Origin: an uncultured Gammaproteobacteria bacterium
GTDB taxonomy: Bacteria; Patescibacteriota; Microgenomatia; UBA8517
Direction: 5' to 3'
Length of the DNA stretch: 64,000 bases
NCBI GenBank assembly: GCA_964431555.1
Contig: CAYSJW010000031.1
Coordinates: forward strand, 336 to 64,335
Of this stretch, positions 1 through 61,700 are shown piece after piece. Under the pieces are notes generated by a model. It ran no database searches and was not told the DNA's origin. It saw only the letters and a list, made by a program, of their open reading frames with translations. Position numbers and translations under genes: made by a program. Every line of letters begins with the position of its first letter. Position 1 is the first letter of the stretch.

Positions 1-370
1 TTTTTGATTCTTCTCGAAGCGATGAAGTAAATTCAGCTAATACTTCTACCATCCTTCTAGGAGTACCTTCATAATTAGCATCTGTAAGATCCAAGCCAAG
101 ATTCGCCAAAAGTTCTTTAGCTGTAGACTCTGCTTTAGTAAAGTCTAATGTTTTTTTCATCATCCTCATTACTAAAAAAATCAAACCCTTGATACAACTG
201 GGTTCTAACGCAAAATTATATCGTTACTAATTGTATTTTTCAACTATTATAGGTAATTTATACCGCTAATGATTCTGTTTTTTGTTCAATCGATACCATT
301 TTAATTCAAACTATGGGGAATTATAATCTTATTAAAGCACAAACTCAAATTAGCTGTTAAAATATATCGT

Positions 371-679
371 ATGGATGGAGCAATTGGAGTTGTATTTGAT
401 AATCGCCAAAGATTACTTCTTGTTAAACGACGAAATGTCCCTGTCTGGGTTTTTCCTGGAGGTGGTATAGAAAAAGGCAAAACTCCTGAAATGGTTGTGG
501 AAAGAGAAGTTTTTGAAGAAAGTGGTTACAAAGTAAAAATAGTAAAAAAGATTGCTGAATATAAATACAAAAGTGTAGAAAGGAAAAACCATGTTTTCGA
601 GTGTCGAATTTTGTCGGGGGACTCGAGAGTCAGCCCAGAATCTAAAGAGGTTGTTTTTTTGACTCTTCCCAAGCATTAA
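371..679 (+). CDS. NUDIX hydrolase
   Basis: Nudix box GGGIEKGKTPEMVVEREVFEESG (GX5EX7REUXEEXGU) in a 102-aa ORF. Confidence 0.75.
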   Translation: MDGAIGVVFDNRQRLLLVKRRNVPVWVFPGGGIEKGKTPEMVVEREVFEESGYKVKIVKKIAEYKYKSVERKNHVFECRILSGDSRVSPESKEVVFLTLPKH

Positions 680-720
680 GCCACGGGCTTTAGCCTCAAG
701 GAGTAAGCATAGTTTGTGGC
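680..720. repeat. Stem-loop GCCAC...GTGGC immediately after the NUDIX stop. Either a terminator or the left-end hairpin of the adjacent IS200/IS605 remnant.
   Basis: GCCAC at 680-684 is complementary to GTGGC at 716-720. There is an inner ggcTTTagcc palindrome and no T-run. Confidence 0.3.
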
Positions 721-774
721 ATAATTGATTGATGGGATTTAATTATTGGCATGGGGGGACATACAAAACATAGG

Positions 775-1068
775 CTTTCGTATCATATTGTTTGAGTACC
801 AAAGTACAGGAAAAGAGTATTACGAGGCAAGGTAGGAAAGAAGATTAAGGAATCAATATATCAAGCTTGTATAGTAAACAGATGGTAGGTTGAAGAACTA
901 AACGTCATGGTAGATCATGTTCATATGTTAATCCGAATACAACCAACATTAAGCATCTCGAAAGTAGTACAGATTATCAAAGGTAAAACAAGCATGATCT
1001 TAAGAACAGAATACCCTGAATTGGAAGAATTTATCTGGGGTGATAGCTTTTGAAAAGAAGGCTACAAA
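775..1068 (+). mobile_element. IS200/IS605-family Y1 transposase (tnpA) remnant. It has three in-frame stops and is treated as a pseudogene.
   Basis: The translation reads SYHIV*VPKYRKRVLRGKV ... NVMVDHVHMLIRIQPTLSISKVVQIIKGKTSMILRTEYPELEEF IWGDSF*KEGYK. It matches the TnpA motifs YHxVWxxKYRR, the HUH motif DHVHLL and the C-terminal FWSRGYF. TGA sits at 793-795 and 1051-1053, both exactly at conserved Trp positions. TAG is at 886-888. Confidence 0.65.
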
Positions 1069-1070
1069 TA

Positions 1071-1111
1071 GGTTCAAACCCGTCGGGTTGAATAGGTTTG
1101 AACCTTTCGGG
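1071..1111. repeat. Tandem palindromic sub-terminal repeat GGTTYRAACCYKTCGGG, in two copies. It is the probable right-end hairpin of the IS200/IS605 remnant.
   Basis: ggttcaaacccgtcggg (1071-1087) and ggtttgaacctttcggg (1095-1111). Each contains the near-palindrome GGTTYRAACC and lies directly downstream of the tnpA remnant. Confidence 0.4.
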
Positions 1112-1202
1112 TGTTAACAAAGTTTGACTTCATACTCACCAATTAATTCTAAAAAGAAAAATATTCAATGAAAGAAAGAGAAATGAAAATACAAACCCAA
1201 GG

Positions 1203-1232
1203 TGTGAAGCCATTTCACCTCTAAGGTGTGAT
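1203..1232 (+). repeat. 30-bp direct repeat, copy 1: tgtgaagccatttcacctctaaggtgtgat.
   Basis: An identical 30-mer recurs at 6165-6194 in the same orientation. It contains the internal hairpin gtgaa-gccat-ttcac. Confidence 0.8.
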
Positions 1233-1316
1233 CTACAGTCTTTTGGCAATATCTTCTGGTCTAACCCCAGACCTGGATAACTCAAATGCCAATCCACAAA
1301 CACCCACGTTTTTCAT
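1233..1316 (-). CDS. Small ORF of 27 aa, MKNVGVCGLAFELSRSGVRPEDIAKRL, with a strong SD. It is hypothetical.
   Basis: GGAGGTGA sits 4 nt upstream of the ATG at 1316. The stop codon abuts direct-repeat copy 1. The ORF is too short for the ORF track and I recognise no homology. Confidence 0.25.
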   Translation of the reverse strand: MKNVGVCGLAFELSRSGVRPEDIAKRL

Positions 1317-1436
1317 AGTATCACCTCCTTTTTAGTCTATTTTACAAGCTGAAGTGATACTATTGTCTCATCTTAAATGAGAAATATCGTCTCAGCTAAT
1401 TTTCAGCTTAGCTTTGTAGAATTCACCCGTATAAAT

Positions 1437-2675
1437 ATGATAATTAGTGTTTTAAAAAAGTTTAAGACTCTAAAAATTTGGTTTTTAAAACAGTCGGTTC
1501 CTACCAAAATCGCTTTCGTTGTTGTAATCTTAGGAGTTAGTTGGTTTACCTTTTATAAGTTTACCGGCAGTAACCAACTCCAAACTCAAATCACAACAGC
1601 AAAGGTTGAAAGAGGAACGATAGTCTCAACAGTTTCTGCTTCTGGTAATATTATTTCCTCTAATTTTATCTCAATTGATACTAACGCAACCGGAATAGTT
1701 AGTAAAGTTTTTGTCAAGGAAGGGGACAAGGTTTATAAAGGCCAAAAAATTGCCGAAATTGAACTCGATTTGGAAGGCCAGCAACGTTTAGCGTCAGCCT
1801 ATTCAAGCCTGGTTTCTGCAAAAAACTCTCTTGCCGCTGCGGAGAATAATCTTCGCCTTGCAGAAGCCTCTTTGGAAAAAGTTTATGATGAGGTTAAAGG
1901 GCACGAGAAAGATGAAACTTTTGCCATAAAGGAAACGAGAACAAAAGCTGAGGTTACAAAAGATAACGCTTATAATAGCCTAGCTACTGCTAAGGCGAAT
2001 CTTTCTCTGGCGTCTATTAATTATCAATTGTCTTCTCCTATTATTATTGCTCCTTCATCAGGGATAATCGGAAGTATAAATGTAGTTCCGGGACTGGTTC
2101 TGGGAACTTCTTCTAATCAATCTTCCACCGCCACAAGTAGCCAAAACAACCTGGGAATGATTATTAAAGAAGGCAATCCTCTGGCTTCTTTCAACGTCTC
2201 TGAAATTGACACTCCTCAAGTTAAAGAGGGACAAAAGGTAACAATTACTTTAGACTCTATTCCCGACAAAACTTTTACAGGGAAAGTTGTAAGTGTTAAT
2301 AGGATGGGAACAGTAACTAACAATGTAACTAACTATCCTGTTATCGTGCAATTTGACACTTTCTCTAAAGAAATTTTAGCCAATATGGCAGCTTCAGCAA
2401 ATATTGTTATTCAAGTTAAAGACAATTGTTTATTAGTCCCTTCATCGGCAATACAAAAAGGTTCTGGCGGACAAATTGTAACTGTTTTAGAAAACAAAAA
2501 AGAAGTACAAAAAGTAGTAGAAACCGGTATTTCCTCGGACACACAAACAGAAATTATTTCCGGTCTTTCCGAAGGAGAAGTTGTTGTTATTACTAGAAGC
2601 AGTGGAACGAAAGTTCAAAGCGGAGGTTCTCCTTTTGGAGTACCAATTGGAGGTACTGGAAGGTTTGTAAGATAA
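1437..2675 (+). CDS. Efflux transporter periplasmic adaptor of the HlyD/MacA family (membrane-fusion protein).
   Basis: It has an N-terminal TM helix, long coiled-coil Ala/Leu-rich segments and C-terminal beta-barrel-like VxV motifs. It sits in an operon with a MacB-type ABC ATPase and an FtsX-like permease. An alternative start lies at 1377. Confidence 0.7.
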   Translation: MIISVLKKFKTLKIWFLKQSVPTKIAFVVVILGVSWFTFYKFTGSNQLQTQITTAKVERGTIVSTVSASGNIISSNFISIDTNATGIVSKVFVKEGDKVYKGQKIAEIELDLEGQQRLASAYSSLVSAKNSLAAAENNLRLAEASLEKVYDEVKGHEKDETFAIKETRTKAEVTKDNAYNSLATAKANLSLASINYQLSSPIIIAPSSGIIGSINVVPGLVLGTSSNQSSTATSSQNNLGMIIKEGNPLASFNVSEIDTPQVKEGQKVTITLDSIPDKTFTGKVVSVNRMGTVTNNVTNYPVIVQFDTFSKEILANMAASANIVIQVKDNCLLVPSSAIQKGSGGQIVTVLENKKEVQKVVETGISSDTQTEIISGLSEGEVVVITRSSGTKVQSGGSPFGVPIGGTGRFVR

Positions 2676-2677
2676 AG

Positions 2678-3385
2678 ATGAGTCTAATTTCTCTATCCCA
2701 CATTTCCAAAATTTACCAAAGCGGTGAAGTGAAAGTTAAGGCCTTAGATGACATTTCTTTTGAAATTGAAAAAGGCGAATTCGTGGCGATTATGGGGCCA
2801 TCTGGATCAGGTAAGTCAACATTAATGCATATTTTAGGTCTTCTGGACAAGCCTACTAGTGGTAAATATCTCTTGGAAGGTATAGATATCTCGAAATTCT
2901 CAGAAGAAGATTTAGCAAAAACCAGAAATAAAAAAATAGGTTTTGTCTTTCAGTTTTTCAATCTCCTGCCAAGAACTTCGGCTTTAAGAAATGTGATGGT
3001 GCCTATGATTTATGGTGGAGTTAAACAAGAGGAAAGAGAAAAAAGGGCAAGAAAGCTTTTAGAAACAGTCGGTTTAAAAGAACGAATTTATCACACATCA
3101 TCTCAATTATCTGGAGGAGAACAGCAGCGTGTAGCAATTGCTCGAGCTTTAACCATGAACCCGGAAATTATTCTGGCTGATGAACCAACAGGAAATGTTG
3201 CCACCAATCAGGCTGAAGAAATAATGAAGATTCTTCAAAGTCTAAACCGGGAGGGTCATACTGTAGTTCTTATTACCCACGAACAAGACATAGCTAGGTA
3301 CGCCAAGAGAATCATCCTTCTTCGCGATGGAAAAATTGTAAAAGACGAGCTAAACGGCAAGCAAAAAATTTTGATAAAAAGATGA
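2678..3385 (+). CDS. ABC transporter ATP-binding protein, MacB/LolD-like.
   Basis: Walker [13 protein letters not shown] signature LSGGEQQR and Walker B ILADEPT. Its TGA stop overlaps the next start as ATGA. Confidence 0.85.
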
Positions 3386-4602
3386 AAATAGAAATTAAAG
3401 AATTGATATCTGAAAGTCTAATCACCTTTAAGGCTAATAAGGTTCGTACTGGCCTGGCTGCCTTGGGGGTGGTAATCGGAATTGCCAGTGTCATTGCACT
3501 TCTATCTTTAGGTCAAGCGTCACAACACTTAATCGAAAGTCAAATTGAATCATTAGGCTCGAATCTACTAACAATTATGCCAGGAAGAATTTCTCAAAGA
3601 GGAATAAGCGGAGCACTCGGTGGAGCAACAACCCTAACCTACAATGACGCACAGGCTATTTCAAAAATTAGCACGGTCAAAACTGTTTCTCCTGAGTTTT
3701 CTCGAAGTACCCAAGTGACTGCCGGTAAAACTAATACCAATACCCAAATTTATGGGATAACCCCGGCTTATTTTCCTGTACGCAAGGTTGATATTGAAAA
3801 AGGGGTAGGAATTTCTCAACACGACGTTGACGCAATGGGCAAAGTGGCAGTTTTAGGTCCCCAAGTCGTTACCAACCTTTTTGGTGAAGGAACAAATCCG
3901 ATTGGAGAAGCTATAAGAATCAATAAAATTGCTTTCAGGGTAGTTGGAGTAACAAAAGGTAAAGGTGGAACTGGATTTTTTAGCCAAGACGACAGAATTT
4001 TTATTCCTTTAACCACTGCACAAAAAATTGTTTTTGGTGCTGAGTATTTAAGCACCATTGCAGTAGAGGCTACCAGCAAAGAAGTAATGACTGAAACACA
4101 AAACCAAATTGGCTATCTATTGCTGGATAGACATCGGATTTCTGACCCTACCGCTGCCGATTTTCAAATTATGTCCCAAGAGGATATTTTGAGTACTGCC
4201 ACCCAGGTAACCGAGACCTTTACTTATCTTTTGGCTGGAATCGCCACTATTTCTCTGTTGGTTGGAGGTATTGGTATTATGAACATTATGCTGGTAACAG
4301 TGACCGAAAGAACGCGGGAGATAGGTTTGCGCAAAGCTTTGGGAGCAACCAGGCAAATTATCATTACTCAGTTTTTAGTAGAAGCAGTAATAATTACCTT
4401 TAGCGGCGGAATTATTGGAATCTTACTGGGAGTGGGAATTTTTGCAATTTTAGCTAAGACAATGAGTTTGCCTTTTTTGATTTCTCCCTCGTCAGTAATA
4501 TTGGCTTTTGCTGTTTCTACCGCAGTTGGAGTCTTATTCGGCTGGTATCCTGCCCGCAAAGCCTCGAGTATGGAACCGATAGAAGCTTTACGGTATGAAT
4601 AA
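3382..4602 (+). CDS. ABC transporter permease of the FtsX/MacB family.
   Basis: It has an N-terminal TM helix, a large periplasmic loop and three C-terminal TM helices (MacB_PCD/FtsX topology). It is translationally coupled to the ATPase. Confidence 0.8.
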   Translation: MKIEIKELISESLITFKANKVRTGLAALGVVIGIASVIALLSLGQASQHLIESQIESLGSNLLTIMPGRISQRGISGALGGATTLTYNDAQAISKISTVKTVSPEFSRSTQVTAGKTNTNTQIYGITPAYFPVRKVDIEKGVGISQHDVDAMGKVAVLGPQVVTNLFGEGTNPIGEAIRINKIAFRVVGVTKGKGGTGFFSQDDRIFIPLTTAQKIVFGAEYLSTIAVEATSKEVMTETQNQIGYLLLDRHRISDPTAADFQIMSQEDILSTATQVTETFTYLLAGIATISLLVGGIGIMNIMLVTVTERTREIGLRKALGATRQIIITQFLVEAVIITFSGGIIGILLGVGIFAILAKTMSLPFLISPSSVILAFAVSTAVGVLFGWYPARKASSMEPIEALRYE

Positions 4603-4653
4603 ATTAAGTTTATCTAAAAAAACTTTAGGTTTTTTGTTTAAGGAGGTGATAAT

Positions 4654-5079
4654 ATGAAAAAAAGCTTAGTTACCACAATTGTTGTTACACTCCTTGTTGG
4701 CAGTGTTTGTTTTTTTGCAGGAATAAAATACCAGCAGAATAAACAAAGAGCTTTTACCAGACAATTCGTTGGTCAAATGGGAGGTAGACAGGGAAATGGA
4801 GCTAACCGTTTAGGTCTCAGTCCAGTTAACGGTGAGATTATCAGTGTTGATGACAAGAGTATCACAGTCAAACTTGCCGATAACAGCAGTAAAATTATCC
4901 TTTTAACTGAAACTACAGTTCTAAACAAGTCATCCGAAGCGTCAAAGAAGGATTTGAAAATAGGAGAGAAAGTGACTGCTTTCGGCACAGAAAATTCAGA
5001 CGGAAGCATTACGGCCCAAAACATCCAGCTTAATCCTATTCTGCGGAATTTGCCTGATACTAAATCCTCGACAAACTAG
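4654..5079 (+). CDS. Small secreted or membrane-anchored protein, hypothetical.
   Basis: It has a strong SD (AAGGAGGTGA) and an N-terminal signal/TM segment KKSLVTTIVVTLLVGSVCFFAG. There are no recognisable catalytic motifs. Confidence 0.45.
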   Translation: MKKSLVTTIVVTLLVGSVCFFAGIKYQQNKQRAFTRQFVGQMGGRQGNGANRLGLSPVNGEIISVDDKSITVKLADNSSKIILLTETTVLNKSSEASKKDLKIGEKVTAFGTENSDGSITAQNIQLNPILRNLPDTKSSTN

Positions 5080-5414
5080 AGTCTGTAAACCCTGTAAGTT
5101 GTACTAGACAGATAAATAAAACGGGTTCTCTAACTGCTTCTAAAAACCTATTTAAGTTCTTTGGCTGCAATTCAGTCTGGAATGCAAACTTCTGCCAAAA
5201 ATTTCTCAACTAGACGACTTATAAATAAATTACCTTTGTAACTTAATTTTTTTGACATTGGGAAATTTATCTACTCAAGTGCTAGAATTATCTTGATGAC
5301 TAAACAGGCCAATGGTCGAATCCGTCTACCAAAAGTTTTTTTGATAGATTTAGCCAAATTCTTTTTACCCTTCGGGAAGCTTTTGGGCTTTCCTATAAAA
5401 TTGATCCATAACTT

Positions 5415-6169
5415 TTGATAACCGCTCTTCTATTAAATGCCGTTTGGGGTCTTACTACTGTTCCTTCTTTTTATATAGATAGGCTGTTGATTGATAATCT
5501 AATTTTATTTGTTGGAAATTCTAATCTTAACCTTCTTTTAAGGCTAATTTTTCTGCTTCTTTTCCTAAGATTTTTTCTTGAGTTTTTTAGAAATGCCTTG
5601 AGCTCTTTTTTAAGCTATTTAAGGTATATGCTTTCAAGGAAAGTCTCAAACCAACTTGATATCTTAATTGGTGAAAAAATCTCCTCTCTTCCTTTAAAAA
5701 CTATTGAGGATCCTGATTTCCGTGACAAATTCAACAAAATTGAGAGGGAATCAGGAAGAAGGGTGTGGGGTCTTATGGTGCCTATATCAAATATTCCCAA
5801 CTATCTTTTGGTCTAATATCTTCAGTAGGTCTACTCTTACTTTTGGGTCCTTATGTAGTTTTAGAAGTCTTTGTCTTTTCTTTTCCAACAATTATGATGG
5901 ATAAGAAATTTATAAAGAAGGATTACGAGCTAAATACAAAATTATCCCCTTTATACAGAGTTTGGGCGTGGCTTAATTATTATTTGACAAGGAACAGAAA
6001 TTTTATGGAAATGAAGATTTTAGGACTTCCTGATTATTTGTCTGAGAAGCTTAGGAAGTTACAAGAAGAAGAATTTAGACAGAAACTGTCTCTTGAAAAA
6101 CAAAGACAGAAATCAAGATTTTTGAGCGTTGTGCCCTCTGCTGTTTTTAATTTTCTGGTAACTTTGTGA
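5415..6169 (+). pseudogene. Frameshifted remnant of a membrane protein. It resembles the transmembrane domain of an ABC exporter (MsbA/ATM1-type), and no nucleotide-binding domain follows.
   Basis: Two overlapping ORFs (5415-5816 and 5765-6169) lie in different frames. Together they read like one TMD: ...SLPLKTIEDPDFRDKFNKIERESGRRVWGLM.../...YGAYIKYSQLSFGLISSVGLLLLLGPYVVLEVF.... The region ends at direct-repeat copy 2. Confidence 0.3.
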
Positions 6170-6194
6170 AGCCATTTCACCTCTAAGGTGTGAT
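6165..6194 (+). repeat. 30-bp direct repeat, copy 2: tgtgaagccatttcacctctaaggtgtgat.
   Basis: It is identical to 1203-1232. A partial extra copy, ttaaggtgtaa, follows it. Confidence 0.8.
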
Positions 6195-6252
6195 TTAAGG
6201 TGTAATTTTACAAACTATACCCTATTACGTTAAAAAGATATATCATAGATTT

Positions 6253-7461
6253 ATGTCAGATCAAGAACCTTCAGGAGAAATAGGAATCTCAAACAGGAAT
6301 CAAGAAAAAATAAATAAATTGAAAGATAAAACTCAACATCCGGAGCTTGTTTCAAAATATGTTAATCAATCAATTCCTGAAGATGTCGCTCGAAGACTTG
6401 CAGCTCGGGACTTATTACTTGAAAGAGCTCGTAAACGAAATAAAGAACTCGAAGAATTAGCACTAAAAGATACACTTACCCGTTTAAGTAGACGAGATAT
6501 CGCGATACCAGATATTGAACACCAAATAGATTTATTCAAAAAAGGAGAGGTTAATACAATCATTATTGGCCTTACTGACATTGATTATTTCAGTAGATGG
6601 AATGATCTTTTCAGAAGCCACAAACTCGGAGATCAGGGGTTAATCGGTTTTGCTGAAATATTAAAGGAAATTTTAAGAGAAGAGGATATGGTTTCCCGGT
6701 TTGGTGGTGAAGAATTTGTAATAAGGTTATCCGTGGAAAAAAACCTAACACCGGAAGAGGCGGAAAAACTTGCAGAAAGAATAAGTGTAGAACTCGGGAA
6801 AAAAGTAATGGAAACACTTTTGGATAGAGTACTGGTAGATAATATCTTGAACGGTCAAAGAAGAGTTAAGATTGACAAATGGGATGAAAATGGTAATAGA
6901 CTAAGTGAACGAGAAGGTACAGTCGTACTTAGAGAATATGCGAAAAATTTTCTTCAAATGAGATCAAATGAAGACGAAGTAGAAAGTGTTGTAATGAACG
7001 GAAAAGGATCTGAAGAAGAAAAAAAAGAACTTTTAAAAATTATTCAATCTATAGACCTAAGTTACTACGAAGAATATCTTTCTGACGAAAGAGTTATCGA
7101 TGAATTTCAGATTGACAAAGACAATCCAGACTCGGAAGATGCTCAGAAGCTTTCGAGAAGACGTGAGATAGAAAGGAAATTGATCGATGATATTCGACGA
7201 GTTTTAAAAACAGGTACATGCAGTTCCGGTTTTCTAGTACTAACCCCTGAAGACAGAGACGAAGTTAATTCAGCTGACCAGCTTAAGAGCATTGCAGATA
7301 GCTTAATGTATCAGGCAAAATCATCAGGTAGAAACAGAGTAGCTTTACAGGTAGGTACTGAAGGTAAACAACCCAAAATTATCCCAATAGAAGGAAAAGA
7401 AAATCAACTTTCACCTGGCACTTCTTCCACCGAACCAACTACCAACTCACCATCTCCATAA
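6253..7461 (+). CDS. Diguanylate cyclase (GGDEF domain, GGEEF active site) with a roughly 150-aa insertion inside the catalytic domain.
   Basis: The motifs present are DIDYFSRWND...H..GDQ, RFGGEEFVI and the C-terminal MYQAKSSGRNRVAL. Between the GGEEF strand and the terminal helix lies a charged insert (Lys/Glu-rich, ~150 aa). Confidence 0.75.
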   Translation: MSDQEPSGEIGISNRNQEKINKLKDKTQHPELVSKYVNQSIPEDVARRLAARDLLLERARKRNKELEELALKDTLTRLSRRDIAIPDIEHQIDLFKKGEVNTIIIGLTDIDYFSRWNDLFRSHKLGDQGLIGFAEILKEILREEDMVSRFGGEEFVIRLSVEKNLTPEEAEKLAERISVELGKKVMETLLDRVLVDNILNGQRRVKIDKWDENGNRLSEREGTVVLREYAKNFLQMRSNEDEVESVVMNGKGSEEEKKELLKIIQSIDLSYYEEYLSDERVIDEFQIDKDNPDSEDAQKLSRRREIERKLIDDIRRVLKTGTCSSGFLVLTPEDRDEVNSADQLKSIADSLMYQAKSSGRNRVALQVGTEGKQPKIIPIEGKENQLSPGTSSTEPTTNSPSP

Positions 7462-7826
7462 ACACTAAAAACATACTTTCTAGACGGGAAAACAATATAG
7501 ATATTTCCAGTTTGTGCATCAATTTCTACCAAACTTAACCCAAATGATGCAAATATAGATTTTATTATTTCCGCAACAAATTCAGTTAATTCCTCACCAG
7601 TTTTCTCACTACGTTTAATGTACTCATCATCTTCGCGAAGCGCCCATTCCAATTCTCCTCCAACCGGCATTGGATTTTGCTCAACAACTAATGAAAAATT
7701 ACTTTTTGGATCAGAAAAAATTATTGAATTATTACCAAATCTTAATTTTTCCGGAAAATTTTCAATTTTACCAATTACTGATTCAACATCAGATTTAAAT
7801 TGAAAAAATGGATTTTCAGCGGACAT
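7404..7826 (-). CDS. Hypothetical protein.
   Basis: A 140-aa ORF. Its 3' end overlaps the 3' end of the GGDEF gene convergently by 58 nt. No motifs were recognised. Confidence 0.35.
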   Translation of the reverse strand: MSAENPFFQFKSDVESVIGKIENFPEKLRFGNNSIIFSDPKSNFSLVVEQNPMPVGGELEWALREDDEYIKRSEKTGEELTEFVAEIIKSIFASFGLSLVEIDAQTGNIYIVFPSRKYVFSVYGDGELVVGSVEEVPGES

Positions 7827-7907
7827 ATCAGTATTTTAAAATCATTTTGAGATTTAAACAACCAGTCTGCTTTCTCATTCAAATTCTATAAAGTTCCAAC
7901 CTGATAG

Positions 7908-7934
7908 ATTGAATAAGTTTAAACCTTTCGGGAG
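7908..7934. repeat. Solitary copy of the IS-end-like palindromic motif attgaataagtttaaacctttcgggag.
   Basis: It matches 1088-1113 (ttgaataggtttgaacctttcgggtg) at about 85% identity. It lies in an intergenic region between two minus-strand genes. Confidence 0.35.
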
Positions 7935-7995
7935 CTAATTTCGTAATCAAATTTCAAAAGAAAGTGAAAATCCAAATTGAGAAATTTTTTAATCT

Positions 7996-9045
7996 TTAAG
8001 GGGTAATTTCAAATTCCACTTTATATTCATCTGCCAGAGCACCAAATTCTTCAAGAATTATCTTCTCAAGAGAATCTATTTCCACAAGCAACTCTTTTAT
8101 TTTTGACTTCTCAATCTTTTCTTCTGTCAATCTTTGTCTGGCATTGTCCCGCTCAACATTTCTTTGCGAAAAATTCATAATTTCAACAATAAAATTTTCA
8201 TCATCTTCTGTAGTATTTGACAATAAGTATCCATGCAATTTTTTCATTGTCTCTGAAAGATCATTGTGATATCCCTTCATCAGCTCATAATAATCAAGTT
8301 CGGTTTCGGGAATATCTTTTATATTATCAAATCTAAATGATGCTTCATTTGAAAGATCCACAAGATCCGAAAGAATTTCAGTCCATTTTTCTTTGTCTGA
8401 AACATTATTTTTAACAAGATTATCCAGTTCTTTAAGTTTGTTATTAAGATTCACTCCTGACGCTTCAAGCATTGTCATTTGGAAACGCTCGAAAGAGTAA
8501 AGTAGATTCAACGATTCTTCCGACTTATGATAATACTCGTTAAGTTTTGTATCAAAAGATTCCAATTCCTCTGGCACTTCGAGCTGCTCTCTTGTTTCTT
8601 GAGCTTTATGAATTAGGTCAAGAGTGGAACTAATATCAATAACGTCCTGCTTCGTATCTTCAAGCGCTGAAAAATAATCTCTGGGTGTAATAATTTCATA
8701 AAAAGCACCTTTACTAGTTTGTAAGGACTTGGATACTTCGATAAATGAACCTTTGAAGTAATCAATTTTATAGGTAATATCTTTTAAATCACCAGCAACA
8801 GCTTGCAGATATTCCTGTGCTTTTACATCAGGTGCTTTTTGCAGAAATTTAACTATAACTAAAATAGAAACAATCAAAGCGAGAATAATAGTAACTAAAA
8901 AATGTAAAATCCTGGATTTTCGAGAATTGTTTCGAATGGAAACTTGTAATTGAGGTAATTCGGTAAGTGCACTTTGTCTTTCCAAAGGTGCTTCAATAAT
9001 ATCAATTTGAGATATCTGCTGGTTTTCTATCTGATCTTTATCCAC
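7996..9045 (-). CDS. Single-pass membrane protein with a coiled-coil, hypothetical.
   Basis: A TM helix FLVTIILALIVSILVIV lies near the N-terminus. The rest is a long acidic, coiled-coil-like region. Confidence 0.4.
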   Translation of the reverse strand: MDKDQIENQQISQIDIIEAPLERQSALTELPQLQVSIRNNSRKSRILHFLVTIILALIVSILVIVKFLQKAPDVKAQEYLQAVAGDLKDITYKIDYFKGSFIEVSKSLQTSKGAFYEIITPRDYFSALEDTKQDVIDISSTLDLIHKAQETREQLEVPEELESFDTKLNEYYHKSEESLNLLYSFERFQMTMLEASGVNLNNKLKELDNLVKNNVSDKEKWTEILSDLVDLSNEASFRFDNIKDIPETELDYYELMKGYHNDLSETMKKLHGYLLSNTTEDDENFIVEIMNFSQRNVERDNARQRLTEEKIEKSKIKELLVEIDSLEKIILEEFGALADEYKVEFEITP

Positions 9046-14399: not shown

Positions 14400-17300
14400 A
14401 TGCAACCGGAAAACAATCTATCAATAGAAAATAATATCTTTAAAGAAGACTATCAAGCTAGTGAAAATTTTTTCAAAAAGATACTTTCTAAAATAAAAAA
14501 CATCTTTACTTTAGCTTTCATTAGAATAAAAACAGCCTGGCTGAGTATACCCAAAAAAACTAGGTTTATCATATCCCCGCTGATTATTCTTACACTTGCA
14601 CTACTTATACTCACGTTGGTATCAAAAAAGTTCAAACCCATAGATAGCATAAGGCGAATCACTCAAGAGGATATCATTAAACAATATTCTGAAGGATGGT
14701 CAAAACTTCAAATTCCCCAAAGAGAACCTGCTTTTTTCACTCTTAAACCGCAAACTCAAAGCAGATACGGCATCCTTCCCAAAGAGACATTTACACTAAA
14801 AACTAAAGAAGCTCTTGAGGAATCTTACATAAAAGAGAATTTAAACTCAAATATCCCAATTAAAATTACATCCGTTTCCAGTACCGAATTCAGAATTACA
14901 AGCGAAAAAGTTTTAGGAAATGACGAAATTGTTTCATTTAACTTACCGGTTAAAAACAAGAAAATCAGCAATCATACTTTTGACAGAAACTACGGATGGA
15001 CATTTCAGACTCAAGGCAAATTTAGAGTTACATCCACTATTCCCGGAAACGAGAAAAAGGACGTTCCACTAAATACTGGAATAGAAATTGTCTTCAGTCA
15101 AGATGATTACAAAGACCCGAAAGACTATATTACGATTACACCTGACATTGAATGGAGGGGGGAAAGACATGGAGAAACTTACGCAATCATTCCCATTAAA
15201 AAACTTAAAGCAAAAACAATCTATACAGTAACACTTAAAAAGGGGTTAAATTTGGAATCACGAAACGATCCAATTGGAGAGGATTTTACTTTTTCCTTCC
15301 AGACACAAGAGTTGGCTGATCCTCAAATGACTACAAGATCTCCAAGAATATCTTTAAATGAAAACTTCATACAAGTTTCAACAAATGAACAACCACCAGC
15401 TGTCAGTGTCTACACATCAAATTGGAAGAACGATTTAAGTCTTAAAACAAAAATCTATAAATTTCCAAACAGCACTCTATTTATCGAATCTAGAAAAAAA
15501 ATAGATGAAGCATCTTCAAATTGGTGGTCATATTTTGCAGAAGACCAAGAAATTTCAACCGAAAACTTAGCCAAAGTTGCTGAAATGGATCTCAAACTCC
15601 AAGAAAAGGATAATGTTGACTACATCCAACTTCCAGAAACTCTGCCTGAAGGCATGTATCTTGTCCAATTTTGGTATGAAGACGGTAAAAAACTCGAGCA
15701 GCTCTGGCTTCAATCAACAAATATTTCCGGATATATATCCGTAGGACGAAAACAAACACTTGTCTGGGTAAATGATGTTGCATCGGGAGAACCGGTAAAA
15801 AGCGCTCAGATAATACCTATTGGAACTAGTTTAAATTATTCAACAAGTGACAATGGAATTGCCGTCTTCTCAACTCCTCAAATTTTTTACGACAAACTAA
15901 TTCATTATATTAAAGTAGCTTCCGATAAAGGCGAGTTAATTTTACCCGTAAATTCGCTTAAAGGATATACCAAACCACAAGAAAAAAATTCCAATGATTA
16001 CTGGTCCTATCTTTACCACGAAAGACGTCTTTATAAACCGGAAGACACAGTTTATTTCTGGGGAGTAATAAAAGAAAGAGACACCGGTCTTATTCCCTCA
16101 AATATAAAAGTAAGTCTTACCAGCGGATATTACTATTACCCACCAAACGAAAATCTCCCGCTTAAATCCGTGGATATTACTCCCGATACCAATGGTTCTT
16201 TTATTGGTAATATAACATTGACAAATATTCCAAAAGGATATTATGAACTTTCCCTAACAGTGAATGAGGTCTGGATTGAAAGCAGTTACCTTCAAATTAC
16301 AGAGTATGAAAAACCCGAAATGAAAATTGAGGTTACTTCTGAAAAGAAAGCCATTTTTTCAACAGAAAAAAACAACTTTACTGCAAAAGTAAGCTTTTAC
16401 GACGAAACCCCAGCAAAAGGGGTTCCTCTAAACATATATAAATCGTTATACTCAAGTGGAGATAAAATTGAATTAAAAACTGACGCAAAAGGAGAAATAA
16501 AATACACTTATCAACCTCAATACGAAAAAGAAAGCAGTAATTACTCATATTATCCACGATATGAAAGTATAACAATTAGTCCTGCGCTAGCGGAGGAATC
16601 CAACATTGAAGGTTTTGGAAGCGTTTACGTTTATGGTTCAAAGCTGATGATCACATCAAAATCCAAACAAGAAGGGAATAAGGCATATCTTTCCGCAACA
16701 GTGAATAAAGTCAACTTAGATAACATAAATAAAGGAATCTCATCTGATGTAAAAGGAGATATTATTCCCAATAAAGAAGTCAGTATGAATATTACAAAAA
16801 CATGGTGGGAGAAAATTGAAGAAGGAACTTATTATGATTTCATCGAAAAAACCACCAGACCTTCCTATAAATATCAAAGACACGACGAAAAAATTGTTGA
16901 CACCAAATTAAAAACAAACGGAAATGGGGAAATTTCATTCGAGTTTAACATGGAAAATGATAAGTCCTATCATTTAATCTTGTCTACTAGTGATGAGGAT
17001 AATCACAAAACTTACGCGAATGAATATTACTATTACCATAAAGGTGATCAAGACTATTCTTTTTATAATGAGTCATATGAGTCCAGATATTCTGGTCTTA
17101 CTTTAGATAAGAAAGAAAACACTTACTCCGTAGGAGAAGATGTTAACTTAAGCATTAAACTAAAAGGTGAAAACTTCCCTGACAATGAAAAAAATAGATT
17201 CCTTTTTATATTAGCCCAAAGAGGAAATCAAGACTTTTTCGTTGAAGAAGGACCAAAATTCAGTTTTACCTTCGAGAAAAAACACATACCCGCTATCTAT

Positions 17301-19643
17301 GCAGCAGCCGTGATCTTTACCGGAAAACACTACCAAATTGTAAGTCATTACTGTTCCTGGGATTGGGCGTGTTCGTATAATTACAATTATTATAATTACT
17401 TCCCTTCTCTGGCAATTTATTATAAAAACAGCGATAGCAAATTAGAATTAGAGTTATCCTCAGACAAAGAAAAATACAAACCGGGAGATAACGCAAAAAT
17501 ATCCGTTTCTGTTAAAAAAGACGGTCAATTTGTTTCCAATGTACAAGTTAATTTAGTCTTAGTTGACCTTGCACTGGAAGCAATAGGAGGAGTTAAAAAA
17601 CCTTCAATTTTAGGTAGTCTTTATAGACCAGTTCCCGCTGAAATCTACTACGAGTATTACTCTCATAAACCATTCTTTCCGTATCCCCCAGAAGCTGAAC
17701 GTGGAGGAGGAGGAGGGGGAGATTACAGAGAAATCTTTAAAGACACGCCTTTTTTTGGATCAGCAAAAACAAATGAAGAAGGCATTGCCAATTTTGAATT
17801 TAAACTACCTGACAATATAACTACATGGTCAATTTACGCCCAAGGACTTTCAGAAAACTTTGACGCAGGGCAAACTGAAGGTAAAATAATATCGAGCAAA
17901 GAATTCTTTGTCACTAGCAACTTCCCTAAAGAATATCTGCAAAAAGACATAAGTTTCATAACGGGAAACGGGTTCGGAAACGCCATAGAGCAAAACCAAA
18001 CAATTTCCTATGAAGTAACGATATTAAAAGGCGATAATCAAATAGATAAAAAATCCGGCGAAGGAAAGACACTGAAAGACAAATCATTCCAACTTCCCTA
18101 CTTACAAACAGGCGAATATAGGGCTTGGCTGAAGGGAACCGCAAATAATCTTGTTGACGGAGTCGTCTATCCTTTTAAGGTAATCGAATCAAGGCTGGAT
18201 TTGCAAATGAACAAAAAGTACAAAATCGAAAAGGGAAACTCACTCGAGAGTATAAGCATCCCAGCCTTAAATAGTAAAAAACCTGTGAGACTTATCTTAA
18301 GTGACATTGGCAGAGGACAATATTACCTCCAGCTTTTCACTTTTTGCAATCTATACAGCAATCGTATTGAGAAAAGATTGGCAAAATCAAAAGCTAATTC
18401 TTTAATTTTAGAAAAATTTAACGAACAACCCTGTAAGGTAAGAAGTGAGGATTTAGTTGTTTATCAAAATTATGATGGTGGTATCTCGCAAGTTCCCTGG
18501 GGAGGAAGTGTACTTGAAACAACAGTCTGGGCAGTTTTAGTTGACCCAAACGCCTTTGATAAAGAAAAACTCACAAAATTCTTTGAAGGAAAATTAAATA
18601 ATAATCAAGGGGGAGACATCCAGAAAATATATTCACTATGGGGACTAACTCTTTTAGGCAAACCACATATAAATGAACTACTTACATTGGCTCAAAATTC
18701 AAAAGAATTTCAGGAAAAGATAATAAGCGCCTTGGCTTTGGCAAGCATCGGTGAAATAGAAATTCCCAGAGAGATTTATTATGACTTATTAGCAGATTTT
18801 GCTTACACGAATAAACCCTATATCCGCATTCAAACTCCCCTTAATAACAACAAAACCGTTGATGAATATGTCAAAAATACAGGTTTAATGCTTCTTTTAG
18901 GAAGCATGGTTGAAAAGGAATACAACGAGGGATTATATCTCTATATTAGAGATTATCAAAATCAAGTTGAAGACATAGTTATCGACCTTGGTAAAATCGC
19001 ATTTATCAGCGAAGAGTTAAGTAAACTCCCCGCTGAGGATACTCAAATAATTTTCAAATCCGCTTCCCGCGAAGAGTTAATTGATCTTTCAAAAGGGATG
19101 AGTAAAAGTATATTACTTCTTGAAGGAGAAATTGACACGACAAAATTAACTATCAATTCAGGCAAGGCCGAAGTTTTAGTTAATTATTTTGTTACCCCTG
19201 ATATCTTTAATCAAATTACTCAAGATAACAGACTTGAAATAAAAAGAGAGTATAAAAAAGTTAAAGGAGAAGGGAACACCATTAATCCGGGAGATATAGT
19301 TGAAATAAAAGTAAGTTTTGGTCTAGATTCAAAAGAAGCGCCACTTGGAAGTTACACAATAACAGATCACCTACCCTCAGGTTTAACATATATCAAAAAC
19401 CCCATAATCTACGGACTTGAAAAAAAGGGCTGGGCTGAAGAGGAAACAAATAACGTAATTAAATACAATTTCTACAATTCAACTTGGTGGCAAAAATACA
19501 GTGAAAGATTCTTCACTTATTATGCCAGAGCAACAGCAGTTGGAACATATGTTGCCGAACCTTGTATAATACAATCTAACTTGGACTTATCTGTAATCAA
19601 AAGTACATCAGAAGAAAAAGTTACAATAGAAAGCAAAAATTAA
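14400..19643 (+). CDS. Large protein of the alpha-2-macroglobulin family, of the thioester-less bacterial MagD/YfaS type. It has an N-terminal TM anchor and is 1747 aa.
   Basis: A TM helix lies at about aa 55-75. The A2M-domain signature FKDTPFFGSAKTNEEGIANFEFKLPDNITTWSIYAQGLSE matches FxETAFFxPxLxTDxxGxxxFxFxLPDSLTxWR. The downstream motif YQNYDGGISQVPWGGSVLETTVWAVLV matches the A2M TED-like motif YQxxDGsFxxW...WLTA. No CxEQ thioester motif was found. Confidence 0.6.
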   Translation: MQPENNLSIENNIFKEDYQASENFFKKILSKIKNIFTLAFIRIKTAWLSIPKKTRFIISPLIILTLALLILTLVSKKFKPIDSIRRITQEDIIKQYSEGWSKLQIPQREPAFFTLKPQTQSRYGILPKETFTLKTKEALEESYIKENLNSNIPIKITSVSSTEFRITSEKVLGNDEIVSFNLPVKNKKISNHTFDRNYGWTFQTQGKFRVTSTIPGNEKKDVPLNTGIEIVFSQDDYKDPKDYITITPDIEWRGERHGETYAIIPIKKLKAKTIYTVTLKKGLNLESRNDPIGEDFTFSFQTQELADPQMTTRSPRISLNENFIQVSTNEQPPAVSVYTSNWKNDLSLKTKIYKFPNSTLFIESRKKIDEASSNWWSYFAEDQEISTENLAKVAEMDLKLQEKDNVDYIQLPETLPEGMYLVQFWYEDGKKLEQLWLQSTNISGYISVGRKQTLVWVNDVASGEPVKSAQIIPIGTSLNYSTSDNGIAVFSTPQIFYDKLIHYIKVASDKGELILPVNSLKGYTKPQEKNSNDYWSYLYHERRLYKPEDTVYFWGVIKERDTGLIPSNIKVSLTSGYYYYPPNENLPLKSVDITPDTNGSFIGNITLTNIPKGYYELSLTVNEVWIESSYLQITEYEKPEMKIEVTSEKKAIFSTEKNNFTAKVSFYDETPAKGVPLNIYKSLYSSGDKIELKTDAKGEIKYTYQPQYEKESSNYSYYPRYESITISPALAEESNIEGFGSVYVYGSKLMITSKSKQEGNKAYLSATVNKVNLDNINKGISSDVKGDIIPNKEVSMNITKTWWEKIEEGTYYDFIEKTTRPSYKYQRHDEKIVDTKLKTNGNGEISFEFNMENDKSYHLILSTSDEDNHKTYANEYYYYHKGDQDYSFYNESYESRYSGLTLDKKENTYSVGEDVNLSIKLKGENFPDNEKNRFLFILAQRGNQDFFVEEGPKFSFTFEKKHIPAIYAAAVIFTGKHYQIVSHYCSWDWACSYNYNYYNYFPSLAIYYKNSDSKLELELSSDKEKYKPGDNAKISVSVKKDGQFVSNVQVNLVLVDLALEAIGGVKKPSILGSLYRPVPAEIYYEYYSHKPFFPYPPEAERGGGGGGDYREIFKDTPFFGSAKTNEEGIANFEFKLPDNITTWSIYAQGLSENFDAGQTEGKIISSKEFFVTSNFPKEYLQKDISFITGNGFGNAIEQNQTISYEVTILKGDNQIDKKSGEGKTLKDKSFQLPYLQTGEYRAWLKGTANNLVDGVVYPFKVIESRLDLQMNKKYKIEKGNSLESISIPALNSKKPVRLILSDIGRGQYYLQLFTFCNLYSNRIEKRLAKSKANSLILEKFNEQPCKVRSEDLVVYQNYDGGISQVPWGGSVLETTVWAVLVDPNAFDKEKLTKFFEGKLNNNQGGDIQKIYSLWGLTLLGKPHINELLTLAQNSKEFQEKIISALALASIGEIEIPREIYYDLLADFAYTNKPYIRIQTPLNNNKTVDEYVKNTGLMLLLGSMVEKEYNEGLYLYIRDYQNQVEDIVIDLGKIAFISEELSKLPAEDTQIIFKSASREELIDLSKGMSKSILLLEGEIDTTKLTINSGKAEVLVNYFVTPDIFNQITQDNRLEIKREYKKVKGEGNTINPGDIVEIKVSFGLDSKEAPLGSYTITDHLPSGLTYIKNPIIYGLEKKGWAEEETNNVIKYNFYNSTWWQKYSERFFTYYARATAVGTYVAEPCIIQSNLDLSVIKSTSEEKVTIESKN

Positions 19644-58778: not shown

Positions 58779-61700
58779 CTAAGGAGAAACTATACTGACA
58801 ATGGTATTACTTCCATAATAATTTCCCCAGGGAGTAGTTTGAGGAATACCTAAAATCCAATAAACATTCTTCGAGGAATTTGAAGGTATAACTTGCGATT
58901 TGGGAATATCTATATCCAAGGGTACAAGATCTTTTGAAAGCAAATTACCCTCACCATAAATAAAACTCGAAGAATCATATTCCTGGTTATCAACATTTAT
59001 CTTATCCCCAAGACAATCCGGATAATCTGTACACATATCATCCCCTGAAATACGCAAATCCAAAGTTCTATTTCCATGATTTTCAACCGGAGTTTGTTTT
59101 AGACCTGACGTCTTAGTGGGAAGAATTTTACCATAAGCAATAGATGATGAAGTACTTATTGTAAGAAGACTATTTACATCAACTACATCGGAAGGGCTGA
59201 TATTTTCCCCTGATTCGCTTTTAACATCTGTTGCCTTAATCCAAGCCAACCAATATTCAGATGAGTAATTCCCCGAATCTGTTGCATCAGAAAAAAAAGC
59301 TAAAGATACCTCACAGGTTGCCGTACAGGAATTTCCCGAACAACCTGAAAGAGTACAAGATGAATCATAATAACAGTTATTTAAATCCTCAACACACTCT
59401 TTCCCAACTCCCGACCTATATACCTTGCCTTCAACAACATCTATATCCGAAAATCCATTCTCGTCAGAAACAGTTGCTGTAAAATTCACTGCTTTGCTAC
59501 TATTTGGTGTCAAATCAATATCTAAACCTGAATTCAAAACTACATTTACCACTTCTGGTGCCGCATTAATGGTCACAACTCCTTCTGAATAATCACTTAC
59601 CTGGGGATTAATACCGTCACTGGTTATACCATATATATAATAAGTTCCAGGGGAAACTCCTGTTGTATCCCAATCACAAGTTTGATTTGAACCTTCAGGC
59701 TGGTCCTGGCAGCTTGAAATCGCAGTTCCGTCAAGACCGCTACCATCTGTGTCATAATAAAAATCGGCATAAACAGTATTATCACCATCACTAAGGTCAT
59801 ACTGGATTGTAAAAACAGATCCTTCAGAAATTACATCGTTAACTCCATCTGGTTCATCAATATTAAGAGAAGGCGGCTGATTTACCAAAGGAGTATATTG
59901 GATAACAATAATTCCCTGTTTCCCTGAAGAACCGGAACCTGCAGAATAACCCTTTCCCGAACCTCCCCCTCCTGCGCCGCCCGCACCATATTGACCAGAT
60001 GTGCCACCCCCGCCTCCGTTGTTATTTCGGCTTCCCCCGCCTCCTCCACCGCCACCACCTCCAGAACCGTGAGTAGAATCCCACTCGCTCCCATTACCTC
60101 CCGCCCCACCCGAAGAACTTGCCGGACCACCGCTTCCTCCGATTCCACCATAAGAACCGTCTCCTCTTCCTCCACTCCCTCCAGCACCTCCCGTATTTCC
60201 TGAAGCGGCAGAACCATTATTACCCGCATTTCCAGATGCATAAAGTCCACCAGCTCCACCGCCACCGCCACCCCCTCCACCGGCATTTGTAGAAGCCGCA
60301 CCTCCACTACCACCATTACCTCCTGAATAACCTGAACCAACCGAAGCTACACCCCCGGACCCCCCATTTGTTCCTGAACCTCCACCACCCCCTGTGGCAC
60401 AAACAGACGAGCTAGCACAACTTGAACCGTTGAAGTAAGTTGACCCCCCTGCGCTTCCTACCGAACCACCACTTCCTACTGCCAACGAAACGGAACTATT
60501 GGGAGTTAAATCCAAATTGGTAATTTTTGAATAGCCTCCACCACCCCCTCCTCCTCCGCCAAGACCTCCTGATGTTGATGAAGCTGTTCCATTTGCTCCT
60601 CCACCACCCCCGCCAACTACTTCAATAGAATTGTCATTATCATTCCAATCATTGGGTACTGTCCAACTCGTTCCCGAAGTTATATAAACAGTCGCATCCG
60701 AAGCTAATTGCCACTGACGAGTATCCCTGAAGGTCTGTTGAGCATCCATCGAAATCATCTCTAAAGGTCCAAGCAAAAAAACAAAGGGGGATAGTTTTGG
60801 AGCCTGATATTCATAAGCAAGTACTTTTTTCTCTTTTGCAGTAACATCCAAAATCCAAGAAATAAACTTTTCATTTTTTTCTTCAGTAATTGTGTAGTTA
60901 CCTTCTTTTATTTGAAAATCTTGCGGAACTTTTTCAATGAGGGTTCCTGAAAAACCAGACTTAGATTCCACTACAATCTTCATCGTATAAGAAGATTTAT
61001 AAGGATTTATACGCGTTGCTCCCACTCTTTCCAGCGAAAAAACAGGATCTTCCTCTACAGTAAACGCACCATTTATCGAAAAACCATTGGCAAGGTTGGT
61101 TAGAAAAAAATGATAGTTGCCAATCTCCTTCAGTTCATAATAAACAAAATAATCAGGTTTATCGGTGACATTATTATTTAGACAATAATCACTTATGGAG
61201 ATAGACCCATCCTCAACATAAAAACTTTTTACCTCCCCATTTGGCTTAACAATCAAAAGTTCCAAGTTGCTATCACAAACCGTGTGTCCATCATCCCCTA
61301 AAGAAGCCATCTGAATATAGGCGGTTTCACCTTTTGCAAAAACTGTTTTATTCAAATTAAGAGCCAGCACTCCATACAAAAAAGTCTGCTCAACAAAATT
61401 ACCCGTTTCATTATCTCTGACAGTAACAACATGTTTACCTGGTTTTATATTGCTAATCGGCACCTGCAATGTCAGATTTTTTAACTCAATATCCTTCTCA
61501 AGTTCCACATTCTTGTCAATGTCTTCAACAATCAGTTTTAAATTCGAGTCTTTTTGTGGTTTGTCAATTTTTTCATTCGACAATCCTAGTATTTTTTGCA
61601 ATACCCCCGATTGAGTTGAACCAACTGTCTCCTCAAAAACAACTTCCTCAATCTTGACTTCAGGCACTTCATCTGCTCTAAAATGAACTTTCGGCATTGA

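Follow-up and report, generated by a model that had tools for sequence, protein, structure and literature searches.

What kind of event has set a whole efflux operon between two identical 30-bp direct repeats, and are these repeats the ends of a mobile unit or a patch of homology across which the operon can be lost? We considered this question for a 64-kb stretch of contig CAYSJW010000031.1 (positions 336 to 64,335), which we call the window and which derives from an uncultured bacterium of the Microgenomatia. The exact 30-mer TGTGAAGCCATTTCACCTCTAAGGTGTGAT occurs in it twice, at 1203-1232 and 6165-6194 and both times on the plus strand, just as a preliminary description of the locus had reported; 100 dinucleotide-preserving shuffles of the window gave no match, even with 3 mismatches allowed. 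The similarity runs on to 33 nt with one mismatch at GAT[C/T]TA (GAT-CTA versus GAT-TTA). That description also placed a partial third copy directly after the second. The 12 nt concerned agree at 10 positions, which is statistically ordinary, and the real, decayed third copy lies at 7893-8007. The features that mark the edges of the segment are as follows.

1203 to 1232, plus strand: 30-mer copy 1, the invariant 3' tail of the repeat element copy E1 and the left boundary of the polymorphic segment.
6165 to 6197, plus strand: e2, a solo 33-nt tail (30-mer copy 2 plus TTA) and the right boundary of the polymorphic segment.
6195 to 6206, plus strand: TTAAGGTGTAAT, matching the final 12 nt of the repeat at 10 positions, not above chance.

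Between the repeats lies a segment that is present or absent as one discrete unit, as had been supposed, and its filled and empty alleles occur in the same sample. An exact lookup of the GGDEF protein encoded to its right retrieved L002, a 51.9-kb metagenome contig from the Joint Genome Institute (JGI), in which the truncated NUDIX gene of the left flank and the GGDEF gene lie 611 nt apart with one 30-mer between them; this is the empty site that the preliminary description had proposed to look for. By alignment and BLAST the empty allele corresponds to window 1-1232 joined to window 6165 onward, with 0 mismatches in the left 1,232 nt and 1 mismatch in the right 11,297 nt. The filled allele is carried by L009, a 5,184-nt contig from the same JGI sample as L002 that equals window 1106-6289, and by L008, from an assembly in the European Nucleotide Archive, which covers window 720-6305; both contain both junctions and are 100% identical to the window. 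Two further contigs from two other samples, L003 and L004, begin exactly at 6165. Flanks reach 95-480 nt past the repeat in the filled allele and kilobases in the empty one, and the flanks of 97 nt and 111 nt are what is left of the assembler's k-mer (k = 127 and k = 141) once the 30-nt repeat is subtracted, as expected from an assembly-graph bubble of two coexisting alleles. Both arrangements are thus genuine, with at least two or three environmental samples containing the two together. They differ by exactly the segment plus one repeat (4,962 bp, 1233 to 6194), with breakpoints inside the repeat, and the event that separates them was therefore a crossover or a template switch within the repeat.

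The repeat itself belongs to a larger unit. Alignment of its copies indicates that the 30-mer is the invariant 3' tail of a non-coding dispersed repeat of about 170 nt, which is represented in the window, besides the solo tail e2, by two copies.

1066 to 1235, plus strand: E1, a full copy of the element, 92.6% identical over 176 nt to L002:5928-6103.
7893 to 8007, plus strand: E3, a decayed whole-element copy with an internal deletion, oriented as the other copies (nhmmer E 1.2e-5).

E1 has three parts: two 24-nt hairpin units in tandem form the 5' module (1069-1117), the spacer is A-rich, and the 3' module (1162-1235) ends ...AAGGTGTGAT(C)TA. A second full copy, L002:5928-6103, lies in the 8.7 kb upstream of the window. 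The 3' 74 nt of E1 are 93% identical to L002:2608-2681 and L005:52-123, and a variant copy at L002:2388-2681 carries the 5' hairpin module and the 3' 74 nt around about 190 nt of unrelated sequence. In E3 the 5' module is 78% and the tail 64% identical; this copy sits between two minus-strand open reading frames (ORFs), its tail overlapping the stop of the ORF at 7996-9045. The right-hand repeat, e2, has none of the element's upstream 137 nt: it consists of the last 30-33 nt alone, fused to a truncated ABC-exporter pseudogene. Every copy ends ...AAGGTGTGAT(T/C)TA, with the sequences diverging beyond, and the left ends start near the junction of TAR and GTTCCAACCC. The tail is identical across five intact copies, whose bodies vary by 7-12%. 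Taking the window together with the 8.7 kb that L002 supplies upstream, five copies in one shared orientation fall inside about 17 kb, where they delimit gene blocks of 2-5 kb, and the other 56 kb hold none. The 24-nt hairpin unit of the 5' module follows the same distribution, with about 8 occurrences in the 17 kb and none in the other 56 kb; solo or tandem units (TTCCAACCCGWCGGGTTGAA) that resemble repetitive extragenic palindromic (REP) sequences are found upstream of the window at L002:3238-3262, 4410-4432, 5835-5900 and 5918-5945.

Beyond this population, a 27-nt core of the tail, AGGTGTGAAGCCATTTCACCTCTAAGG, is perfectly conserved in L001 (Woesebacteria GW2011_GWB1_39_12) and in metagenome contig L006 (620-658), and on its sequence a role as a regulatory RNA or a protein-binding site is conceivable. 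At L001:1358-1422 the core fills a 50-nt gap from a HIT-family gene to the next gene. It carries an anti-Shine-Dalgarno-like CACCTC between two AGGTG motifs, plus TGTGA...TCAC half-sites. A search for more copies through ORFs called across the element (chimeric peptide query) gave no matches, nor did viral contigs and plasmid collections, and the element is not present at the MacAB loci of relatives.

We compared the repeat with the known classes of sequence that might produce such a pair. The internal GTGAA/TTCAC stem noted earlier is present (hairpin GTGAAGCCATTTCAC), though on neither strand does the 30-mer fold more stably than its shuffled counterparts (z about 0); the whole element of about 170 nt gives z = -0.6 and the 5' module only -2.4, so that neither has exceptional secondary structure. 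No terminator-like site lies in 600-1500 or at 6165-6194 and no T-run follows the 30-mer hairpin, which excludes an intrinsic terminator family; nor does any promoter-like site coincide with the 30-mer, and a promoter was rejected as well. The preliminary description would have given up its case had the 30-mer been a common genome-wide intergenic motif, such as a terminator family, unlinked to the cassette; the repeat does belong to a multi-copy intergenic family, but it is no terminator and it is linked to the presence or absence of the cassette. A tRNA-derived attachment site was ruled out, since an ARAGORN scan found no tRNA and inspection by eye no tRNA-like fold in the repeat. Rfam 15 returned no match in the window at gathering thresholds and nothing relevant at relaxed cut-offs (E<=5 in 600-8200, E<=0.1 in L002 1-9000), and a known RNA family was rejected. 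No convincing dif-like match with 6 or fewer mismatches supports a dif/Xer site, and GC skew follows gene orientation, which argues against a replication-terminus hotspot. A CRISPR repeat is excluded by the arrangement (two copies 4,962 nt apart, the others inside the conserved 170-nt element, no array), and a casposon-like target duplication by the lack of cas1 and of an array. The 30-mer is without the R''/L''...L'/R' boxes (RYYYAAC...GTTRRRY) of an integron attC site, GTTGAAT occurring only in the unrelated 5' hairpin unit; no intI was found for an integron platform, and the segment is a block of several genes that includes a divergent ORF of its own. The copies differ mostly by A/G transitions, which run in both directions, and manual inspection saw no reverse transcriptase, so the template and variable repeats of a diversity-generating retroelement were also rejected. 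Neither is the element the carrier of a conserved small ORF, as the frame is broken in L002a and L006.

A further proposal, a miniature inverted-repeat transposable element (MITE) of the DDE type, turns on the termini. Compared by hand, the left end and the reverse complement of the right end agree at 8/25 positions, so that there are no terminal inverted repeats of the kind that mark such an element. As to a target-site duplication, in three copies TA precedes RGTTCC and TA ends ...GATYTA, and this TA is possibly part of the element itself. Subterminal hairpins lie near both ends, the left and right ones being unlike, and the 3' boundary is sharp.

What lies between the repeats, and beyond the right one, is listed here.

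1236 to 1316, minus strand: 27-codon ORF (translation MKNVGVCGLAFELSRSGVRPEDIAKRL) with a strong ribosome-binding site, AGGAGGTG.
1377 to 2675, plus strand: intact MacA/HlyD-type periplasmic adaptor (Pfam HlyD_D23 and HlyD_3; NCBIfam RND_mfp 4.9e-37).
2678 to 3385, plus strand: intact ABC ATPase of the MacB/LolD type (ABC_tran 2.1e-36; MacB N-terminal half 6.9e-80).
3382 to 4602, plus strand: intact MacB-type permease (Pfam MacB_PCD and FtsX, 4.7e-46 and 8.5e-24).
4654 to 5079, plus strand: small membrane-anchored or secreted DUF5666 protein (Pfam DUF5666 8.6e-7).
5293 to 6166, plus strand: ABC-exporter pseudogene, the N-terminal ~292 of ~615 aa with two frameshifts, cut exactly at 30-mer copy 2.
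6253 to 7461, plus strand: GGDEF diguanylate-cyclase gene (Pfam GGDEF 4.9e-21), the right-hand neighbour in both alleles (L002-L004).

Pfam and NCBIfam thus bear out the adaptor, ATPase, permease and small secreted protein of the preliminary description, the last of them as DUF5666. The closest protein relatives of the window are those of Microgenomates/Woesebacteria, which marks its source as a member of the Candidate Phyla Radiation. The closest relatives of the permease are 80-84% identical and come from Microgenomates; a DUF5666 gene follows MacB in L013-L018 as well and is therefore the same operon partner in relatives, whose MacAB operons sit in unrelated contexts, none with NUDIX-GGDEF synteny. 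Homologous MacAB-DUF5666 operons were seen near a lone cas1 (L013:4254-5285) or near IS1595 and IS110 transposases (L015:365-3729).

Both edges of the segment cut genes. On the left, the 27-codon ORF, which takes its stop codon from the CTA that closes the element, resembles the beginning of a helix-turn-helix (HTH) protein in its translation; it has no family match, and no homologue elsewhere in the window or the collected loci. On the right stands what had been called a frameshifted MsbA-like remnant. What holds of that claim is a truncated ABC-exporter half that runs up to the second repeat, its stop codon falling inside the repeat; the remnant has no Pfam, NCBIfam or PDB match. A full HMMER scan with it found homologues of 590-615 aa, and its three frames align colinearly and without gaps to residues 12-291 of P0242 (615 aa; 44% identity, E 2e-71), a protein with ABC_tran at residues 385-540. 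What remains is therefore the N-terminal half of a twice-frameshifted ABC exporter gene; neither the window nor the 8.7 kb upstream in L002 contains the missing 3' half. Because genes are cut at both edges, the segment is best seen as an arbitrary chromosomal stretch and not as a designed mobile unit. Its composition is native-like: 37.3% G+C compares with 34.4 ± 1.9% (the window as a whole has 34%), and its tetranucleotide distance is within the range of the window. Pfam scans of the segment, the 64-kb window and the 8.7 kb upstream detected no recombinase or transposase domains except those of a dead IS200.

On balance, then, we regard the locus as probably polymorphic for a recent repeat-mediated deletion, in which a resident efflux operon was lost across a repeat that a small, unclassified dispersed element supplied. 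Exchange between the two tails, which are direct repeats, would have proceeded by crossover or template switching, whether through short-homology recombination of the RecA type or through slippage during replication, and would remove a segment that comprises the truncated HTH-like ORF, the operon of MacA, ABC ATPase, MacB permease and DUF5666, the ABC-exporter pseudogene and one repeat copy. Thirty base pairs is at about the minimum known to sustain RecA-dependent recombination in Escherichia coli. Of the two alleles we take the filled one to be the older, the empty one having arisen by a recent deletion that took the operon away, because the identical MacB is found in this context only and no donor locus was seen, because the segment is native-like in composition, because no recombinase occurs in the segment, the window or the upstream region, and because the segment begins and ends at arbitrary points within genes. 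Excision would yield a circle with one repeat, subsequently lost; the solo tail would be an older scar of element activity, as would the genes cut short at each boundary of the element.

The resemblance to repeat-mediated segmental deletions described elsewhere (PMC2884548, PMC4627823) is considerable. In both, a segment of a few kilobases is present or absent between otherwise identical genomes, direct repeats stand at its edges, the short allele keeps one of them and the segment holds no dedicated enzyme. Small variable segments of this kind are common in bacterial species (PMC2884548), and RecA-independent recombination between direct repeats several kilobases apart is documented, for longer repeats (PMC4627823). 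The present case differs in that the repeat is only 30-33 bp long and is the invariant tail of a dispersed element instead of a random homology, and in that older rearrangement breakpoints also coincide with the ends of that element.

Several observations weigh against a simple deletion. The direction of the event is not polarised by an outgroup, since the relatives carry the operon in unrelated contexts. Thirty base pairs is a very short substrate for a 5-kb deletion. At least four breakpoints lie exactly at element or tail ends, namely the junctions of the IS200 remnant with E1, of E1 with the truncated HTH-like ORF, of the truncated ABC gene with e2, and of e2 with the region upstream of GGDEF. 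A second strain difference (L005:124-2178 versus L002:2680-2889, with flanks 99% identical) begins exactly past another 30-mer copy, after L002:2679; there L005 has a 618-aa ORF without a family match and L002 a 210-nt fragment. Adjoining it, at L002:2890-3021, is a stretch of about 130 nt that L002 and L005 share; conserved and rich in G+C within a genome of 34% G+C, it has no Rfam match, folds with z = -1.9 and may be an unannotated structured RNA. Taken together, the breakpoints at element ends, the second strain difference, the tail that is invariant over diverging bodies and the clustering of copies in a single orientation are a hint that the tail is an enzymatically active site and not a passive patch of homology.

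If so, the 27-33-nt tail might be the site of a trans-encoded recombinase that carries out cassette exchange. We consider this unlikely, with rather more to be said for it than for the proposals that follow. A circular unit made of the segment and one tail would integrate beside a resident tail, or leave it, and over time such exchange would build an array of multi-gene segments between repeats of one orientation, in the manner of IS26 translocatable units or of integrase-less islands mobilised in trans. The five co-oriented copies that delimit 2-5-kb blocks in 17 kb, the breakpoints exactly at tail boundaries, and the tail whose core recurs unchanged in a Woesebacteria genome and another metagenome contig all speak for it, and the empty allele retains one site, as after precise excision of a translocatable unit (PMC4196232, PMC4676283). 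IS26 pseudo-compound transposons and translocatable units, described in the same papers, likewise carry arbitrary and often truncated cargo between directly oriented repeats, leave a single repeat when the segment is lost with the other, and form local arrays of repeats and segments. IS26 is, however, an 820-bp insertion sequence (IS) with its own DDE transposase and terminal inverted repeats, whereas the unit shared here is 30-33 nt (a non-coding element of 170 nt at most) with neither transposase nor inverted repeats. No recombinase is encoded in the window or the 8.7 kb upstream, copy 2 is without the rest of the element, so that only 30-33 nt are common to both sides, the cassette was found in no alternative context and the element is absent from the relatives' MacAB loci. 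The right boundary of the L005/L002a difference is, moreover, fuzzy and grades into a homologous terminator region, so that on sequence this difference looks like an allelic replacement.

Integrase-less cis-mobilisable islands are elements flanked by att direct repeats. The preliminary description had raised att-like sites, and the pair does show the identical edge cores and the one-core empty site of attL and attR; what is missing is a tyrosine or serine recombinase in or next to the element, across the segment, the window and the 8.7 kb upstream. Such islands, and those of the tycheposon type with their repeated att remnants (10.1101/2020.12.28.424599), share with our locus direct repeats of about 30 bp at the edges, a one-copy empty site and repeat remnants clustered in a variable region. 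The locus departs from them in having no integrase, in a repeat that is neither a tRNA nor a gene 3' end, and in edges that both cut genes and enclose no coherent element. With no integrase or transposase bar the dead IS200, the proposal of an integrated att-flanked element is not supported. All in all, we allow a small chance that some undescribed site-specific system underlies the polymorphism. In its most specific form, which we hold to be distinctly improbable, the tail would be the recombination site of an undescribed trans-acting system of the Microgenomates, either an IS26-like recombinase or a Y1/HUH enzyme that pairs two right ends; such a system would move arbitrary multi-gene segments beside resident copies and so yield the observed same-orientation array and its 2-5-kb blocks.

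A recent gain, with the empty allele ancestral, is also quite unlikely in our view. The cassette would have come by transformation or other transfer and entered via the 30-mer, either as a circle by a Campbell-type event or through the capture of linear DNA that duplicated a 30-bp target. Perfect identity of the two repeats fits such an event, as does the nature of the segment, a fragment of arbitrary extent whose genes are truncated at either end, as captured DNA would be; the contexts of the operon also vary among relatives, some lying beside IS elements, and judging from these neighbourhoods the MacAB-DUF5666 operon tends to sit in plastic regions. But no donor context was found for the identical genes, and the native-like composition, within the range of the window, together with an exact MacB confined to this context, leaves the earlier suggestion of horizontal acquisition without backing. 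We know of no bacterial transposase that makes a 30-bp target duplication, and a circle would already require an odd junction of truncated ABC gene, tail and truncated HTH-like ORF.

The presence of a transposase remnant at the left edge of the locus brings in a single-strand mechanism, which we judge very unlikely. Two features of the left flank matter here.

371 to 679, plus strand: truncated NUDIX gene of 102 aa (Pfam NUDIX 1.7e-15, profile positions 5-85 of 134).
662 to 1065, plus strand: decayed IS200-family element, a left-end hairpin region and a tnpA pseudogene (Y1_Tnp 6.6e-33).

The remnant is real, but it does not lie directly upstream of the 30-mer as had been thought: it ends at 1065, and the 137 nt from there to the 30-mer belong to the same repeat element as the 30-mer. 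Its left end, at 662 by alignment to intact IS200 copies, supplies the last 6 codons of the NUDIX gene (662-679, TLPKH and the stop). The pseudogene, 85% identical in amino-acid sequence to the intact 145-aa TnpA P0001, has one frameshift and three in-frame stops and is cut between GGCTAC and AAATAG, so that it has lost its 3' part, together with the right end of the IS, and stops before the catalytic Tyr region (truncated at 1065; Pfam profile positions 2-106 of 121). Within 751-1071 all three stops replace Trp codons of the intact relatives (TGG to TGA, TAG and TGA), G-to-A changes only, and the frameshift lies near the start. Since the host uses TGA as a stop (for example in the ATGA overlap at 3382-3385), these stops are decay and not recoding.

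A trans-acting HUH/Y1 transposase would treat the element as a palindrome-associated, IS200/IS605-like or REP-like non-autonomous element with the tail as its right end (hairpin plus cleavage site); cutting after both tails on one strand, it would release a single-stranded DNA circle and reseal the donor with one tail. The lack of terminal inverted repeats, the subterminal hairpins near both ends and the sharp 3' boundary agree with this, and so do the REP-like solo hairpin units scattered nearby, the presence of the Y1 transposase family in the lineage and the single orientation of the copies, as expected for lagging-strand-template targeting (PMC5027513), although n = 5 is weak evidence for an orientation bias. 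Palindrome-associated transposable elements (PATEs) and the REP and bacterial interspersed mosaic elements (BIMEs) moved by Y1 transposases (PMC3201880, PMC5027513, PMC8266576) are similarly small, non-coding and intergenic, with hairpin-containing ends, no terminal inverted repeats and a uniform orientation, and here a Y1 pseudogene adjoins. Against this, the hairpins of the element, themselves dissimilar left and right, are unlike those of the adjoining IS200 family: in intact relatives (L011, L012, L024, L025) both ends bear the hairpin CCACGGGCTTTAGCCCGTGG, and the IS ends ...GTGGAGTATCATT(T), whereas the 30-mer carries GTGAAGCCATTTCAC, which rules it out as an IS200 right end. The local tnpA is dead, and no cognate Y1 gene or REP-associated tyrosine transposase (RAYT) gene was found. 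The cleavage site of IS608 is set by a guide tetranucleotide 5' of the hairpin (PMC3201880), yet the bases at that position differ between copy 1 (AAGG) and copy 2 (ACTT), and the 30-mer hairpin is thermodynamically unremarkable. Two truncated TnpA entries, P0012 and P0286, considered as further element junctions, proved to be point-mutated full-length IS200 copies and were uninformative.

That one arrangement is a mis-join across the repeat is scarcely credible: short repeats can confuse assemblers and several contigs do break at this one, but contigs that span both arrangements were assembled from k-mers (127-141) much exceeding the repeat in length, derive from samples and assemblies independent of one another, and extend well past the repeat on the scale given above.

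Elsewhere in the window, two large genes were recorded: a 1,747-aa alpha-2-macroglobulin-like protein (Big_5, A2M) at 14400-19643 on the plus strand, and a 1,718-aa ORF at 58779-63935 on the minus strand, which matches no family apart from the HTH_23/HTH_28 domain at its N-terminus.

The repeat-mediated deletion that we favour has implications for how gene content changes in these organisms. The locus is a clean case, resolved to the base pair, of gene-content variation within one population of a Candidate Phyla Radiation bacterium, in which a complete MacAB-type efflux operon is gained or lost via a 30-bp repeat while both alleles coexist in the same samples, and it shows how very small genomes shed or keep accessory transporters. 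It also draws attention to an unclassified element of about 170 nt, with a 27-nt core conserved across species and ends that coincide with several rearrangement breakpoints. If the tail is indeed an enzymatic site, it would point towards a new mechanism of cassette exchange; if not, the polymorphism would be a textbook repeat-mediated deletion.

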